Positions 15,990 through 57,078 of a stretch of DNA of 64,000 nucleotides are shown piece by piece. The notes beneath the pieces were generated by a model, which did not search any database, was not told where the DNA came from, and worked only from the letters and a program-made list of their open reading frames with translations. Position 1 is the first letter of the stretch. The number at the start of each line of letters is the position of its first letter. The position numbers and the translations under genes are program-made. Origin of the DNA: Methanobacteriota archaeon (lineage in GTDB: Archaea; JAADCQ01; Methanopyri; Methanopyrales; Methanopyraceae); assembly GCA_027064425.1 (NCBI GenBank), contig JAMOPO010000015.1, positions 128,001 to 192,000 of the forward strand. Direction: 5' to 3'.

Positions 15990-16016
15990 GAATCGTTAAC
16001 TGGCTCGTAACAATTC
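15990..16016. repeat. 27-bp palindromic element, copy 1 (downstream of rps15)
   Basis: GAATCGTTA-ACTGGCTCG-TAACAATTC. Confidence 0.8.
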
Positions 16017-16031
16017 GGGCCGGGGGCCGGC

Positions 16032-16481
16032 CTACTCGACGTGCAGGGCCTCCGGGTCGTACTTCCAGTCCTTGGGCAGCTTGCCCTTCCGCTTGTAGTA
16101 CTTCACCAGTCGGTGGATCTTGGACTCGATCAGCTGCAGTCCCCGCTTCGAGTGCAGGTCCTTCGGGTGCCGCTTCAGGTGCTCGCGGAGCCGCTTGGCC
16201 CGCCGGATGAGGTTCAGCAGGTCCTCCGGGATCTCCGGCGCGAGCCCGTGCTCCTCCAGGATCTCGGTGATCTTCTTACCCGTAATCAGCTTCACGTCCG
16301 GGATCCCGTACTCGTCGCGCAGCTTGATGCCGATCATCGAGGGCTCGTAGCCCTGCTTGGCCAGGTCGACGACCAGGCTCTCCACCTCCTCCGGCGAGTA
16401 CTCGACCCACGAGGGCGGGGTCACGCGCGGTGGCCGGGTTGAGCCTGACTTGCCCTTGTCCCGGGAGTGCATGCGGGCCAT
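16032..16481 (-). CDS. rps15: 30S ribosomal protein S15
   Basis: [23 protein letters not shown]. Confidence 0.98.
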
Positions 16482-16484
16482 GGC

Positions 16485-17048
16485 CTATCGCCCCGCGTGG
16501 CGCTTGAACCATCTGGCGAACCTCTCGAGAGCCCGGGCCCTGTGCGACATTTTACATTTTTCCTCAACGCCTAGCTCGGCGAACGTTTTTTCTTGACCCT
16601 CCGGGATGAAGATCGGATCGAACCCGAAGCCCTCCTTGCCCCGGGGTTCCTCCGCGATCCTGCCCTCGATCTCGCCCGTGAAGGTCACGGGCTTCTCGCC
16701 CGGCTCGCAGTAGCCGACCACCGAGATGAACCGCGCCGTCCGGTCCTCCTCGCCCTCGAGCAGCTTCAGGATCCCCTCGTTCCCGATCGTGTCGAACACG
16801 TAGGCGGAGTACGGACCCGGGAACCCGTTCAGGGCGTCCACGAACAGGCCCGAGTCCTCGACGATCACCGGCTTGCCCAGGGACTCGGCGCAGTACCGGG
16901 CCCCGTACGCCGCGATCTCCTCCAGGCTGTCCGACTGCAGCTCCGGGTAGTCCACGTCCACGCGCTCCGCCTCGATCCCGTGATCCTCGAGGATGTCTCG
17001 CATCTCCCGGAACTTGTCCCGGTTTCCGGTGGCGACGAGGATCTTCAA
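16485..17048 (-). CDS. rdgB: Non-canonical purine NTP pyrophosphatase (Ham1/RdgB)
   Basis: ATGNRDK, EDSGL, GFPGPYS, GFGFDPIF, SHR. Confidence 0.95.
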   Translation of the reverse strand: MKILVATGNRDKFREMRDILEDHGIEAERVDVDYPELQSDSLEEIAAYGARYCAESLGKPVIVEDSGLFVDALNGFPGPYSAYVFDTIGNEGILKLLEGEEDRTARFISVVGYCEPGEKPVTFTGEIEGRIAEEPRGKEGFGFDPIFIPEGQEKTFAELGVEEKCKMSHRARALERFARWFKRHAGR

Positions 17049-17132
17049 CCGGCCGCCCCCCACCCAACGTTTAAATTCCGAGTGCAGTTCGGCTTGCAGC
17101 CCATTGGAGGACCGCTGGGGGTCGGTTCGGCA

Positions 17133-18929
17133 TTGAGTGAAGACAAGCGGGTAATCAGGCAACCGATAATATCGGTGCTGGGACACGTGGACCACGGTAA
17201 GACGACGCTCCTGGACAAGATCAGGGGCACGGCCGTTGCCGCCAAGGAGGCTGGTGGCATCACTCAACACATCGGCGCGTCGGAGATCCCGCTGGACGTG
17301 ATAAAGGAGATTTGCGGTCCCCTGCTCGAGCAACTCGACGTGGAGATCACGATCCCCGGCCTCCTGTTCATCGACACGCCCGGCCACGAGGCCTTCACCA
17401 ACCTCCGCCGCCGCGGCGGCGCCCTCGCGGACATCGCGATCCTAGTCGTCGACGTCATGGAGGGCGTCATGCCGCAGACCGAGGAGGCGCTCCGGATCCT
17501 CCGGCGCTACAAGACGCCGTTCGTGGTCGCCGCGAACAAGGTGGACCGGATCCCGGGCTGGAAGTCGCACGAGGATGCGCCCTTCACGGAGTCGTTCCAG
17601 AAGCAGTCCCCGGAGGTCCAGAAGCGGCTGGAGGAGAAGATCTACGAGCTCATCGGCCAGCTCCACCAGCACGGGTTCCAGGCGGAGCGGTTCGACCGCG
17701 TCCGCGACTTCACGCGCACGGTGGCCATCGTGCCCACGAGCGGGATCACCGGTGAGGGCATCCCCGAGCTCCTCATGGTCGTGACCGGACTCGCCCAGCG
17801 GTTCCTGGAGGAGCAGCTCAAGATCGAGGTGAGCGGACCCGGCAAGGCCGCGATCCTGGAGGTCAAGAAGGAGCCGGGTCTAGGCCACACGGTGGACGCG
17901 ATCCTCTACGACGGGATCATCAAGACGGGCGACAAGATCGTCATCGGTCACCCGGAGGAGCCGATCGTCACCCGGGTCCGCTCGCTGCTGAAGCCCAAGC
18001 CGCTGGACGAGATGCGCGATCCAAGCGACAAGTTCCGGAAGGTGGACGAGGTGAGCGCCGCGGCCGGTGTGAAGATCAGCGCCCCCGAGCTCGACCGGGC
18101 GATCGCGGGCGCCCCGCTGCGGGTCGTCGGCGAGGACGAGGACGTGGAGGAGGTCGTGGAGGAGGTGCAGCGCGAGGTCGAGGAGGTCACGATCGAGACG
18201 GACAAGGACGGGATCATCATCAAGGCGGACACGCTGGGCACGCTGGAGGCCGTGGTGGGTGAGTTCAAGGAGAAGGAGGTGCCGATCCGGCGCGCCGACG
18301 TGGGCGACATCACGAAGGAGGACGTGATCGAGGCGCACGCGGTCGCCGAGAAGGACCCGCGACTGGGCGTGATCGTCGGGTTCAACGTGGGCATCACCGA
18401 GGAGGCCAAGGAGCTAGCGGACGAGTACGACGTGGACATCATCGTGGACGACGTGATCTACGAGCTGGTCGAGAAGTACGAGGAGATGATCGAGGAGCGG
18501 ATCAAGCGGGAGCGCCGCAAGCGCCTCGACGAGCTCGTTCGGCCGGGCAAGATCAAGGTCCTGCCCGGCTACATCTTCCGCCAGAGCAAGCCGGCGATCG
18601 TGGGCATCAAAGTCCTCGGCGGCGTCATCAAGCCCGGGTACCCACTCATGCGCGAGGACGGCCGGGAGCTGGGCGAGATCAAGCAGATACAGTCACACGG
18701 TGAGCCGCTCGAGGAGGCCAAGAAGGGCGACGAGGTCGCCATCTCGATCGAGGGACCGATCGTGGGCCGGCACTTCGACGAGGGTGACATCCTGTACACC
18801 GACGTGCCCTCGGAGCACGCGAAGCAGATGTTCGAGGAGTTCTGGGACCTGCTGACCGAGGACGAGAAGGAGGTGCTGAAGGAGATCGCGGAGATTAAGC
18901 GCGAGGAGGACCCGTTCTACGGGACGTAA
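17133..18929 (+). CDS. infB: Translation initiation factor aIF5B (IF-2), no intein
   Basis: [27 protein letters not shown]. Confidence 0.98.
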
Positions 18930-18937
18930 CCGGCCCG

Positions 18938-18993
18938 GCCGATGACGAGAAACCTGGGCACGGACGGATGAAGAGCCGCGTCCTAGCGGAGGC
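18938..18993 (+). ncRNA. C/D box sRNA
   Basis: gcc-gATGACGA-gaaacctgggca-CGGA-cggATGAAGA-gccgcgtcctag-CGGA-ggc; two 12-nt guides. Confidence 0.8.
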
Positions 18994-55635: not shown

Positions 55636-55644
55636 GCGGCTTTT

Positions 55645-55753
55645 TGGTGCCGCGGCCGGGATTTGAACCCGGGCCCACCGGATGGCCGAGGCCCCGCGGA
55701 CGACCCGCGGGGCCTCTTCAGTCCGGCGCTCTCCCAGGCTGAGCTGCCGCGGC
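55645..55753 (-). tRNA. tRNA-Phe(GAA) with 32-nt 37/38 intron (55684-55715), genomic C8, encoded CCA
   Basis: GCCGCGG-C-A-GCTC...CCGGA-CT-GAA-G[intron]A-TCCGG; BHB helix CTGA/TCGG with AGA and CCA bulges. Confidence 0.96.
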
Positions 55754-55848
55754 CTCGCATCGGGGCCGTCGGGGGCGGCCCGCTTTGCCTATTTAACTTT
55801 GTCGGCCGGTGGGGGCCGCGGTCGATCGGGGCGCGGGGGCGCGGGTCA

Positions 55849-56943
55849 TTGTACCTGACGAGGGAGGAGGAGCGGATCCTGGACGGCGAGGAGGGGGAGC
55901 TGAAGGCGCGGCTGTTGGAGGTGCTGGTGAAGCTGGGGGAGACGTTCGGCGCGGAGCGGTTGGTGAGGCCGGCGTCGGTGCACGTGTCGGGGGTGTCGTA
56001 CAAGACGATCGGGGATGCGGGGCTGCGGTTCCTGCGGCGGGTGGCGGAGGAGGGGCTGCGGGTGGAGGTGCCGACGAGCGTGAACCCGTGCGGGATCTGC
56101 CTGGAGGGTAACTTGAAGGTGGACGAGGGGTTCGAGCGGCGGCAGCGGGAGATCCTGGAGGCGCTGGAGTCGTTGGGCGCGGCGCCGGTGTACACCTGCG
56201 CGCCGTACCAGCAGGGGTTCCAGCCGTCGGTGGGTGACGTGCTGGCGTGGGGGGAGTCGTCGGCGGTCTTCGTGGCGAACACGTGGTTCGGGGCGCGGGC
56301 GAACCGGGAGGGGGCGCCGGCGACGGTGGCGGCGGCGGTCACGGGGCGGGTCCCGGAGTACGGGCTGCACCTGGAGGAGAACCGGGTGGCGGAGTACGAG
56401 GTGGTCGTGGAGTTCGAGCCGCGGAACGACTTCGAGTGGTCGGCGCTGGGGTACTGGCTGGGGGAGGCGGTGGACGGGATCCCGGTGCTGAGGCTGCCGG
56501 TGCGGCCGTCGCTGTCGAACGTGAAGTACCTGGGGGCGGCCGCGGCGGCGTCTGGGGCGCTGGCGATGGCGTACATCCCGGGGGTGACGCCGGAGGAGCC
56601 GCGGGTGGACGATCCGGAGCGGGTTGAGGTGGAGCGGGAGGACGTGCTCGATCTGGTGGAGTCGCGGTTCGGGAGGGAGCGGGAGGGGCTGGCGTTCACG
56701 GGGTGCCCGCACCGGGTGGACGGGGAGGCGTTCCGGTTCCGCGGGTGCGACTGCTACGTGTGCTGCCCGGCGAACGCGGTGTTCGAGGGCAGGGTGCTAC
56801 GGGGTACCTGCCCGGTGGTCGCGCCGATCGAGGAGGTGTGCGACGCGGTGTACACGGACTCGCTGAAGGCGGCGCACTACCTGGCGTCGCGGGTGGAGGT
56901 GAACGTGGGCCCGCTGGGGCCAGAAAACGATAAAAGTGAGTGA
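55849..56943 (+). CDS. Aconitase X catalytic subunit (DUF521; phosphomevalonate dehydratase large subunit-like)
   Basis: YLTREEE.ILDGE.G, HVSGVSYKTIGDAG, TCAPY, AWGESSA, GCPH, TCPVVAP, TDSLKAAHY. Confidence 0.9.
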   Translation: MYLTREEERILDGEEGELKARLLEVLVKLGETFGAERLVRPASVHVSGVSYKTIGDAGLRFLRRVAEEGLRVEVPTSVNPCGICLEGNLKVDEGFERRQREILEALESLGAAPVYTCAPYQQGFQPSVGDVLAWGESSAVFVANTWFGARANREGAPATVAAAVTGRVPEYGLHLEENRVAEYEVVVEFEPRNDFEWSALGYWLGEAVDGIPVLRLPVRPSLSNVKYLGAAAAASGALAMAYIPGVTPEEPRVDDPERVEVEREDVLDLVESRFGREREGLAFTGCPHRVDGEAFRFRGCDCYVCCPANAVFEGRVLRGTCPVVAPIEEVCDAVYTDSLKAAHYLASRVEVNVGPLGPENDKSE

Positions 56944-56966
56944 CCGCGGGGTAGGCACGGACGCGA

Positions 56967-57044
56967 GGGGCCGTGGGGTAGCCTGGTCTATCCTTCCGGC
57001 TTTGGGGGCCGGAGACCCCGGTTCAAATCCGGGCGGCCCCACCA
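56967..57044 (+). tRNA. tRNA-Pro(TGG), genomic T8, encoded CCA
   Basis: GGGGCCG-TG-GGGT...CCGGC-TT-TGG-GG-GCCGG...TTCAAAT...CGGCCCC-ACCA. Confidence 0.97.
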
Positions 57045-57051
57045 ATCCCGC

Positions 57052-57078
57052 GAATTGTTACGAGTTCCTTAACGATCG
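57052..57078. repeat. 27-bp palindromic element, copy 5 (downstream of tRNA-Pro)
   Basis: GAATTGTTA-CGAGTTCCT-TAACGATCG. Confidence 0.8.

Follow-up and report, generated by a model that had tools for sequence, protein, structure and literature searches.

A 27-base palindrome with the family consensus RAATYGTTA-N9-TAACGAT stands at the 3' ends of heavily used genes, for stable RNAs and for proteins, in one thermophilic archaeal genus, where it most likely marks transcript ends by a mechanism that has yet to be described for archaea. We analyzed a window of 64,000 nt (contig JAMOPO010000015.1, positions 128,001-192,000, assembly GCA_027064425.1, Methanobacteriota archaeon, Methanopyraceae), the genome containing it (G000) and a second genome of the same genus (G002), and compared the family across six genomes of the genus and 15 other archaeal genomes. 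Scanning at up to three mismatches yielded 63 sites in G000 and 0 in the control, and 29-56 sites in each of the five remaining genomes. The family is genus-wide, with 29-63 sites in all six genomes, and it is a genus-specific signal, with 0-1 sites per genome outside the genus. The sequence-only reading of the window knew of no earlier description; a motif CGTTA(N)9TAACG was, however, published in 2017 (PMC5217627), placed in that paper's account of it ~10 bp downstream of about half of the M. kandleri tRNA genes. The shared core, N9, place past tRNA genes and genus restriction identify it, within that account, as the same element. What is added here is its breadth of placement, at all tRNA genes of two genomes and also at 5S, 23S and SRP RNA, C/D-box sRNAs, ribosomal-protein and other genes, its occurrence in all six genomes, and the polarity of its arms, which vary without covariation.

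All five palindromes first noticed in the window are present, and their distances of 4, 9, 7, 15 and 29 nt to the preceding genes agree with those recomputed from ARAGORN, Rfam and ORF ends. The copies and their neighbors are:

15990-16016, minus strand: element copy, 15 nt past the rps15 stop
16032-16481, minus strand: rps15, an ORF with Pfam Ribosomal_S13_N and Ribosomal_S15
19509-19892, plus strand: rpl7ae, an ORF with Pfam Ribosomal_L7Ae
19907-19917, plus strand: C-rich 3'-UTR motif CCTCACGCCCC, 4 nt upstream of the rpl7ae element
19922-19948, plus strand: element copy, 29 nt past the rpl7ae stop, spacer non-palindromic
52203-52229, minus strand: element copy of tRNA-Gly, sense strand GAATCGTTACGAGGTTCGTAACGATAT, 4 nt past CCA, RNA fold -11.9 kcal/mol
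52234-52309, minus strand: tRNA-Gly (GCC), CCA encoded, ARAGORN end including CCA at 52234
55609-55635, minus strand: degenerate element copy of an intron-bearing tRNA (Phe in the sequence-only reading), 9 nt past CCA, RNA fold -2.9 kcal/mol, at shuffle level
55645-55753, minus strand: intron-containing tRNA gene, Rfam call (end 55648 plus CCA), without an ARAGORN call
56967-57044, plus strand: tRNA-Pro (TGG), CCA encoded, called by ARAGORN and Rfam
57052-57078, plus strand: element copy of tRNA-Pro, 7 nt past CCA, RNA fold -3.1 kcal/mol, z-score -0.6

As had been claimed, a copy follows all three tRNA genes of the window (ARAGORN and Rfam). A fourth ARAGORN call, tRNA-Arg at 17874-17956, lies inside the aIF5B/IF-2 gene without Rfam support and was rejected. 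Past the rps15 element, a DHH/DHHA1 (RecJ-like) gene in the same orientation begins after ~25 nt. The tRNA-Phe copy carries an A/A mismatch at positions 9 and 19, which recurs in the G002 ortholog. Searching with the arms only (ATCGTTA-N9-TAACGAT, up to three mismatches) gave seven window matches against 0.31 expected, and at least seven were reached in 0 of 100 shuffles. Five of these matches are the copies listed above; the other two, at 40147 and 47301 with three mismatches each, fall where the sequence looks coding and probably arose by chance. The 26-base consensus with a semi-palindromic spacer that had been proposed turned out to be over-specified: at up to three mismatches it recovers the tRNA-Gly copy only, and neither the rps15 nor the rpl7ae copy has a palindromic spacer.

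Across the genome, the 3' placement seen in the window extends to all tRNAs, other stable RNAs and ribosomal-protein genes. In G000, each of the 34 Rfam tRNA genes has an element on its 3' side, at exactly CCA+4 nt in 24 of them and at 5-9 nt in 10, and so do tRNA-Sec and three intron-bearing tRNA-like genes read by eye; in G002, all 31 Rfam tRNAs carry it. Further copies are found at 5S rRNA +10 nt, at SRP RNA +13 nt, at the 23S end and after C/D-box sRNAs. Like rps15 and rpl7ae, rpl32e has an element 3', and ~24 protein-gene stops (about 20 besides the named genes) lie 11-60 nt upstream of an element, as read by eye, with six loci also checked by ORFs and Pfam. Three convergent ORFs place their stop codon within the element, two of them Pfam-supported (HD_assoc_2, DUF531) and the third read by eye.

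This distribution bears on the idea of a selfish or relic repeat (REP/RAYT-like or a recombinase site) that spread to tRNA flanks without cellular function. A dispersed, genus-specific, extragenic, multi-copy palindrome is what such a repeat would look like, but the element occurs at 100% of tRNA genes at a fixed distance, its orthologous copies are retained in six of six species despite flank divergence, and no copy inside a gene was seen, beyond stop-codon overlap, in a by-eye reading of the non-tRNA sites. In addition, a Y1 transposase (PF01797) was not found in the 99%-complete genome, whereas 6 of 14 control genomes matched. This origin is already disfavoured, and we regard it as highly improbable.

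What is conserved in the element is sequence rather than pairing, as the sequence-only reading had suggested, and the two arms vary independently. In all six genomes of the genus, the copies behind rps15 and rpl7ae persist at orthologous positions while their flanks diverge, and at rpl7ae the N9 spacer diverges along with the flanks. The spacing is N9 in 78 of 82 exact-core strand matches. The gene-proximal arm is better conserved than the distal arm: in the G000 tRNA copies A3, G6, T7 and T8 are invariant and T4 nearly so, whereas positions 24-27 decay and positions 4/24 are unpaired in 14 of 34 copies. No covariation was detected in G002 (paired cells 70.0% versus 70.4% shuffled; covariation 0.146 versus 0.149), and G000 displayed a small excess only (82.4% paired versus 79.7% in shuffles; the paired percentage reached by 1 and the covariation score by 0 of 500 shuffles), which paralogous tRNA flanks could explain; a simple RNA hairpin is not favoured. 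Counted from the alignment rows, positions 10/18 in G000 are C·A six times and U·G five times, and positions 5/23 in G002 are C/G 3, T/A 4, T/G 4, C/A 5 and C/C 1. The predicted RNA hairpins are weak, as anticipated, for a window that the sequence-only reading ascribes to a hyperthermophile: at 37 C their energies span -2.9 to -11.9 kcal/mol. Shuffled sequences fold as well as the tRNA-Pro and tRNA-Phe copies; the best folders, tRNA-Gly (-11.9 kcal/mol) and SRP RNA (-10.9 kcal/mol), have z-scores of -4 to -6. Since the arms vary independently, C·A is as common as U·G and hairpins are weak, a two-fold duplex-DNA site is favored over an RNA hairpin, and from these sequence patterns we think that the element acts as duplex DNA.

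An intrinsic hairpin terminator or a 3'-end-protecting hairpin, in the manner of bacterial rho-independent terminators and REP stabilisers, would accommodate a palindrome at gene 3' ends, the well-folding tRNA-Gly and SRP RNA copies and the slight excess pairing in G000. We nevertheless consider it very unlikely, as no U-tract follows the window copies, many copies fold at shuffle level, G002 lacks covariation, the rps15 and rpl7ae orthologs keep sequence rather than structure, and A-tailed RNA ends, described below, hint at ends before the palindrome and not after it. The scarcity of oligo-T noted earlier for the window holds insofar as T5 runs are rare, but they are not absent (23 strand matches versus 7.0 expected from shuffles). 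Bacterial REP/BIME elements and rho-independent terminators are likewise palindromes scattered through extragenic sequence at the 3' ends of genes, frequently where two genes converge; the element differs from them in that it has no RAYT transposase, its arms do not keep their pairing, it has neither a GC-rich stem nor a U-tract, and its distance from tRNA ends is exact. The histone mRNA stem-loop with SLBP resembles it as a short stem-loop of conserved sequence at which a beta-CASP nuclease sets the 3' end of an RNA, but there the CPSF73 cut falls 3' of the stem-loop and the stem keeps its pairing, whereas the ends seen here are on the 5' side of the element, whose pairing is not kept.

RNA evidence came from contigs carrying library A-tails in four runs. 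A-tailed ends of tRNA-Pro fall at CCA+0/1, +2 and +3, with +0/1 tailed in all four runs and +2 and +3 in subsets, and a minus-strand RNA that converges on the element has its end 5-8 nt short of the other edge (tail in one of four runs). A-tailed ends at one locus precede the element by 5-8 nt on both strands, 9-12 bp from the invariant core, a hint that RNA 3' ends lie directly upstream of the element in both directions. A published RNA-seq study, in its portion on tRNA processing, has 3' processing come ahead of 5' processing (PMC3695527). RNA contigs also span the G002 tRNA-Gly element in three of four runs (depth ~19-24), and one contig continues from the 3' end of another tRNA across its element and ~225 nt further, indicating that elements are transcribed at least sometimes.

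Our leading but tentative reading is that a candidate protein recognizes the element by its sequence and that the site works as a polar terminator or boundary. The element would serve as a 3' boundary mark of transcription units, above all of stable-RNA genes: two inverted half-sites RAATYGTTA(Y) at rigid 9-bp spacing may bind a candidate two-fold symmetric protein, which would stop or release RNA polymerase coming from the side of a good half-site, and transcripts would end a few nt before the palindrome, for tRNAs directly after CCA. In this reading we infer that a protein binds, that it acts with polarity and that transcription terminates there. The arms, N9, weak hairpins and position at the 3' ends of strong units fit the dimeric DNA-binding site suggested earlier, although the roadblock suggested with it is one route among others and some contigs run through. 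The stop codons of the three convergent ORFs inside the element imply that polymerase arriving from their side has to get into the site, so that the block cannot be symmetric. Two geometric points also count against this reading. At the usual 4-nt spacer, a polymerase whose front edge is 12 bp ahead of the active site would overlap the first half-site on finishing CCA, which makes the roadblock geometry tight, and the half-site centres lie ~16 bp (1.5 turns) apart, a separation that simple helix-turn-helix dimers do not usually show.

Protein roadblock terminators act behind rRNA genes (Reb1, Nsi1 and TTF-I), on Pol II (Reb1 and TFIIIB) and behind mitochondrial 16S rRNA (mTERF1). They share with the element a specific DNA site immediately behind stable-RNA genes, polar action, as proposed for the element, and possible read-through; their sites, however, are not palindromic and their binders are known (Myb-like or mTERF repeats), whereas the element is a palindrome with a putative binder. 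The distances given for Reb1 and TFIIIB in PMC5052057, with yeast Pol II roadblocked ~12 bp upstream of Reb1 sites, resemble those seen here, with RNA ends ~10-12 bp before the site. Roadblock-type termination was not described for archaea in the literature searched. The accounts of archaeal termination in PMC7515710, PMC8716108, PMC11616081 and PMC13675443 that bear on this question involve U/T-tracts with aCPSF1/FttA; this likewise concerns transcription-unit ends, and the present genome has a beta-CASP nuclease gene, but the window copies have no U-tract and the signal is a conserved palindrome.

The main rival of a protein-bound terminator, possible though somewhat doubtful, is an RNA cleavage signal, in which the transcribed element would direct an endonucleolytic cut ~4-5 nt upstream, guided either by a hairpin that a protein holds in place or by the 5' arm GAAUCGUUA in single-stranded form, and made by a beta-CASP/aCPSF-type, RNase Z-like or other nuclease. 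Such a cut would create the 3' ends of tRNA, rRNA, SRP RNA and sRNAs and separate co-transcribed RNAs. Consistent with it are the fixed 4-nt distance to CCA, the existence of element-containing transcripts, elements on both sides of some sRNAs, the better-kept 5' arm including GAAT, stop codons within elements, which would be harmless, and RNase Z-like and beta-CASP genes in the genome. In five G002 tRNA genes without encoded CCA (by eye), the element lies 4-6 nt past the discriminator. Moreover, 6-10 co-directional downstream genes or C/D-box-like sRNAs start 5-26 nt past an element with no TATA box visible by eye, which suggests read-through or RNA processing. A 3'-maturation signal was the speculation offered in 2017 in the part of PMC5217627 on the motif. 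Against cleavage, the hairpin is not conserved, with C·A mismatches in the stem core and several copies at shuffle level; a single-stranded motif needs no inverted second arm at rigid N9 at every tRNA gene; and AU-rich stems of -3 to -6 kcal/mol (37 C) should not persist unaided at the assumed very high growth temperature.

A DNA site with another job, such as a site for a global regulator of the downstream gene, a site for a factor of DNA topology or chromosome organisation positioned after highly transcribed genes, or an element lying upstream in strong promoters, is unlikely. Its architecture would suit a dimer site, genes start shortly past many copies, and at five loci a conserved strong-promoter module, GAGCTCATCG-TATAAGTTG, follows the element at a distance of 68-70 nt (by eye). 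Yet end formation is indicated by the precise CCA+4 coupling and by the copies behind every stable-RNA gene, no copy is confined to a divergent 5'-5' region among ~37 interpretable non-tRNA sites (6 of 43 were unclear), and recognisable promoters use ordinary TATA boxes, e.g., TTTAATAA, TTATATAT and TATAAGTT. As a separate observation, the C-rich motif CCTCACGCCCC of the rpl7ae 3'-UTR has eight exact copies in the genome, four of which lie directly upstream of an element.

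Inspection of the window confirmed five copies of the palindrome RAATYGTTA-N9-TAACGAT, at 15990-16016, 19922-19948, 52203-52229, 55609-55635 and 57052-57078, as the sequence-only reading had claimed. The window is 68% G+C, and the genes that the five copies follow are these:

16032..16481, minus strand: ORF of ribosomal protein S15 (rps15), stop codon 15 nt before the element
19509..19892, plus strand: ORF of L7Ae (rpl7ae), stop codon 29 nt before the element
52234-52309, minus strand: tRNA-Gly, called by ARAGORN and Rfam, element 4 nt past the encoded CCA
55648-55753, minus strand: intron-bearing tRNA (the tRNA-Phe of the sequence-only reading), called by Rfam alone, element 9 nt past the encoded CCA
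56967-57044, plus strand: tRNA-Pro, called by ARAGORN and Rfam, element 7 nt past the encoded CCA

A further ARAGORN call, tRNA-Arg (ACG) at 17874-17956, was rejected as a false positive: it finds no support in Rfam, lies inside a 778-aa aIF5B/IF-2 gene (Pfam) and has no element. An arms-only pattern matches the window seven times against 0.31 expected; five of these are the reported copies and the remaining two carry three mismatches each within coding-looking sequence. Both cores are exact or Y/R-changed in four of the five copies, and the tRNA-Phe copy differs additionally at position 9 (T instead of A) and position 19 (A instead of T), counted 1-27 in gene sense. The semi-palindromic spacer described earlier is not a general feature, since the full 26-base consensus with up to three mismatches matches the Gly copy only.

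These copies belong to a large family. The pattern GAATCGTTA-N9-TAACGATTC with up to three mismatches finds 63 sites in the window's own genome, G000 (57 contigs, 1.54 Mb, 99.17% complete), vs none for the reversed control pattern, and by eye the total including degenerate copies is about 81. When the exact cores CGTTA and TAACG were allowed a free gap of 2-22, N9 accounted for 78 of 82 strand matches in this genome, the other four rows representing three sites, two of N8 and one of N15. The other five genomes of the genus hold 29, 34, 44, 56 and 52 sites, and each of 15 archaeal genomes from other families gives 0-1 matches (controls 0-4). The same motif is already in print, so that the earlier claim that no description existed was wrong: a 2017 paper reports CGTTA(N)9TAACG about 10 bp downstream of roughly half of the tRNA genes of M. 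kandleri AV19 and speculates on a role in 3' maturation (PMC5217627). Our element has the defining features of that motif, namely the core with exact N9, the place downstream of tRNA genes and the restriction to Methanopyrus, the last resting on all six genomes of the genus and the sample of 15 others. Literature searches by word and by sequence string returned only the 2017 paper and no later work on the motif, and Methanopyrus is absent from the accessible text of a 2026 review of termination (PMC13675443). What is new here is the universality at the tRNA genes of two genomes, the sites at 5S, 23S, SRP RNA, sRNA and protein genes, the genus-wide presence, the orthologous conservation, the polarity, the quantitative evidence against a plain hairpin and a first look at RNA ends.

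All 34 tRNA genes that Rfam finds in G000 are followed by the element, as are all 31 in G002, a second, complete genome of the genus, in agreement with the published placement about 10 bp past tRNA genes. In G000, at least 20 of the 34 have a site among the listed matches with up to three mismatches, the flanks of 13 previously unmatched tRNAs carry the element, and the tRNA-Phe copy, with more than three mismatches, is likewise present by its flank. The G002 copies comprise 13 with up to three mismatches, 2 recognized by eye and 16 more degenerate ones. In the sense-oriented alignment of the 34 G000 genes the encoded CCA is invariant, as are A3, G6, T7, T8, A20, A21 and C22 of the element, and the distance from CCA to position 1 is exactly 4 nt in 24 genes and 5-9 nt in the other 10. 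Five G002 tRNA genes (L091, L094, L099, L101, L104) appear to lack an encoded CCA, with the element 4-6 nt past the discriminator.

The association extends to unusual tRNAs and other stable RNAs. A tRNA-Sec (Rfam and ARAGORN) bears the element, and so do three further intron-bearing tRNA-like genes at C15:204668 (L010), C15:289868 (L049) and C27:32016 (L057), which we picked out visually by their T-arm, acceptor stem and CCA, and which, having long insertions, were missed by Rfam (at threshold) and ARAGORN. Two of the three resemble D-loop-intron tRNA-Glu genes, a type reported from M. kandleri. 5S rRNA has the element 10 nt past its end, SRP RNA 13 nt past, and 23S rRNA about 130 nt past its 3' end. 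It also adjoins several C/D-box-like sRNAs (box motifs by eye), which lie after, before or between elements at C5:13806, C52:142977, C15:345498, C29:656, C57:192838 and C2:3000-3122; two of them have weak Rfam matches below the gathering score (sR60, sR10). According to published work, these sRNAs are circular in M. kandleri, by a circularization mechanism that is reportedly unknown.

Among the 43 non-tRNA sites of G000, about 24 lie 11-60 nt past a protein-gene stop, often between convergent genes, and about 6 have no clear reading (both by eye). ORF lists and Pfam confirm this placement at six loci (S15, L7Ae, L32e, AIRS_C, TruD, HD_assoc_2, DUF531 and a 448-aa ORF). Viewed by eye, none of the roughly 81 G000 sites lies within a gene except by stop-codon overlap, and none was seen solely in a divergent 5'-5' spacer. 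Three convergent ORFs stop inside the element (DUF531 and HD_assoc_2 by Pfam, one unnamed by eye; C27:32016, C27:117652 and C27:214247; L057, L059 and L077), two of them using the TAA of the TAACG arm as stop codon, so that the weaker arm's side must admit polymerase. Genes in the same direction, or C/D-box-like sRNAs, begin 5-26 nt past the element with no visible TATA box, for example where rps15 and its element are followed by a DHH/RecJ-like gene; therefore either the stop is leaky or the RNAs are cut apart there.

We discarded the idea that an arm serves as a TATA box or promoter. Recognizable promoters here are ordinary TATA boxes elsewhere, the one tail next to an element belongs to an RNA's 3' end, and a palindromic promoter would yield antisense tRNA transcripts. 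Another role at the DNA level is improbable. Of the features of an operator for a dimeric DNA-binding protein, the inverted half-sites, fixed spacing and independent variation are all present, but the sites follow gene ends instead of occupying promoter regions. A strong-promoter module, GAGCTCATCG-(T/A)ATAAGTTG(G/A)TTGCTGG, is conserved 68-70 nt from the element at five loci whose spacer sequences differ:

G000 C2:513, C2:3122, C13:2060, C46:128 and C48:890 (L003, L041, L047, L081, L012): promoter-module loci

At least two such promoters drive short RNAs, some 85-100 nt long, that have no match in any Rfam family and stop at a further element.

The dispersed, extragenic, imperfect palindromes also recall REP/RAYT elements. 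We dropped this comparison because the cognate Y1 transposase (PF01797) has no match in G000, in a search whose control was positive in 6 of 14 genomes; the element overall fails the defining features of that class, and a selfish repeat is very improbable.

Conservation was assessed across species and within the tRNA-linked copies. The rps15 and rpl7ae copies sit at the orthologous place in all six genomes of the genus, with divergence in the 3' UTR and in both spacers, N9 and downstream, and a 35-nt insertion in two species. The arms and their spacing are under purifying selection. Among the 34 tRNA-linked copies of G000, standard pairs fill 82.4% of cells vs 79.7% in column-preserving shuffles (reached by 1 of 500) and the covariation score is 0.145 vs 0.103 (reached by 0 of 500), a small excess of the kind that related sequences can cause, several tRNA flanks being near-duplicates. 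The 17 more degenerate copies of G002 show no excess of pairing (70.0% vs 70.4%, reached by 332 of 500 shuffles) or of covariation (0.146 vs 0.149, reached by 279 of 500). Sense-strand mismatches have no bias toward RNA-tolerated wobble: positions 10/18 in G000 are U·G five times and C·A six times (C·A counted by hand from alignment rows). At core positions 5/23 of G002 a hand count gave C/G 3, T/A 4, T/G 4, C/A 5 and C/C 1, the spectrum expected for independent half-sites. For seven folded copies the predicted RNA hairpins have energies between -2.9 and -11.9 kcal/mol (37 C); two of them, tRNA-Pro and tRNA-Phe, are at shuffle level.

An intrinsic or protective hairpin is quite improbable. A hairpin followed by a U-tract calls for a stable, usually GC-rich hairpin maintained by pairing, whereas the energies here are weak and G002 shows no covariation; the element fails the defining features of intrinsic terminators. 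No sense-direction T run follows any of the five window copies, so that the T5+ tract at the transcript end, as in the archaeal U-tract/FttA terminator, is missing as well. T5 runs in the window are rare yet above chance (23 strand matches vs 7.0 +/- 2.9 in shuffles); the palindrome probably coexists with ordinary T-tract signals.

The two-fold symmetry, rigid spacing, unconstrained spacer and independent arms look like a dimeric protein site on duplex DNA and are unlike a self-folding RNA in a hyperthermophile. The element is polar: in sense orientation conservation is good across the gene-proximal arm, (G)AATCGTTA, and decays at positions 24-27 of the distal arm. Of the 34 G000 tRNA copies, 18 have a paired A at position 24 and 14 have no pair there, and 20 lack a pair at positions 2/26. 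By eye, most one-sided protein-gene sites show a similar tendency.

RNA ends were read from four small-RNA runs of 2013, available as contigs, on the orthologous 7-kb stretch of G002 (L038); because contigs cannot give levels, these ends are hints only. Contigs carry A-runs (T on the other strand) that are absent from the genome, which we read as library tails; a small-RNA study of this genus describes A-tail trimming. At tRNA-Pro, tails begin past L038 6611 (CCA+0/1, four of four runs), 6612 (+2, two runs) and 6613 (+3, three runs), and the element starts at 6618. On the other side, one contig (one of four runs) has a T-run before 6649, and a contig of a second run begins at 6653. Here a minus-strand RNA has its 3' end; its small ORF stops, by eye, at 6675-6677, and the end lies 5-8 nt before the other element edge (6644). 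At this one locus, therefore, both ends lie some 18-21 nt away from the dyad and 9-12 bp short of the invariant core. A roadblock would place RNA ends some 10-15 bp before its site; what we have is one locus, from contigs only, with ends 5-8 nt from the edge, and read-through contigs elsewhere. Against such stops, the G002 tRNA-Gly element is bridged in three of four runs at a depth of about 19-24, and its arm met first from the side of the convergent gene is degenerate (ATAATGTTA). One contig runs from the 3' end of another tRNA through its element and about 225 nt further. No contig spans the tRNA-Pro and tRNA-Phe elements of G002, and we do not take missing cover as evidence.

Taken together, the readings considered make it probable that the element forms or marks RNA 3' ends by some route. 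Our best reading, at a confidence that stops short of probable, predicts a polar DNA site where a bound protein terminates transcription or sets a boundary. In a narrower and more tentative version, a site-specific polar protein-DNA terminator may end every stable-RNA gene and some mRNAs: a predicted dimer specific to the genus would sit on RAATYGTTA-N9-TAACGAT and stop the archaeal RNA polymerase some 10 bp short of the core, and tRNAs would then be born with nearly mature CCA ends. Reb1/TTF-I/mTERF-type roadblocks share a specific DNA site directly downstream of the gene, a likeness of function alone, as no candidate binder was identified here; in yeast, roadblocked Pol II ends 12 bp before Reb1 sites (PMC5052057). 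With a 4-nt spacer and a 12-bp leading edge, the polymerase overlaps the first half-site while making CCA, and a pure roadblock is geometrically tight. The main rival, a transcribed cleavage or punctuation signal, is somewhat unlikely in our judgment. Beta-CASP genes are present, and an RNase Z-like gene is full-length in five of six genus genomes, with a partial match in the sixth, all below the curated cut-off. As such a gene is present, we abandoned the argument that termination must make the tRNA end for want of RNase Z. Su et al. 2013 deduce that tRNA 3' processing precedes 5' processing (PMC3695527), an order that fits ends formed very early.

Current accounts of archaeal termination center on U-tracts and the nuclease FttA/aCPSF1. 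Here, in a GC-rich lineage that the sequence-only reading took for hyperthermophilic Methanopyrus, the ends of tRNA, 5S, SRP and rRNA-operon transcripts all carry a conserved palindrome, not a U-tract. Should the element work as a terminator bound by a protein, or as a signal for sequence-specific cleavage, the mechanism would be one undescribed in archaea; a site-specific, factor-bound terminator would be the first of its kind there, an archaeal counterpart of TTF-I/Reb1 and mTERF. The element further serves as a pointer to the 3' ends of small RNAs that lack annotation and of intron-bearing tRNAs missed by standard tools, and might be of use as a compact, possibly bidirectional boundary element in thermophile engineering.

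Some copies have distinctive surroundings. At G000 C57:11340-11365 (L106) an N8 variant separates glutamine synthetase (glnA) from an NrpR-like regulator gene, the sole DNA-binding gene seen beside any copy. As a candidate binder this gene is unsupported: it lies downstream of glnA, and the known operator of NrpR differs from the element. A C-rich CCTCACGCCCC occurs between stop codon and element at window 19907-19917 and at G000 C15:42887, C52:143021 and C5:10123. Its exact G000 copies number eight, four of them between stop and element, and we rejected it as a general co-motif because it is not enriched at up to one mismatch (145 matches vs 192 for the control). At G000 C5:~15640 (L026) a tRNA's own element is followed, about 70 nt downstream, by another palindrome whose arm (CCAATTGTTTCGATGATCGAAACAATGG) is related but not the same.
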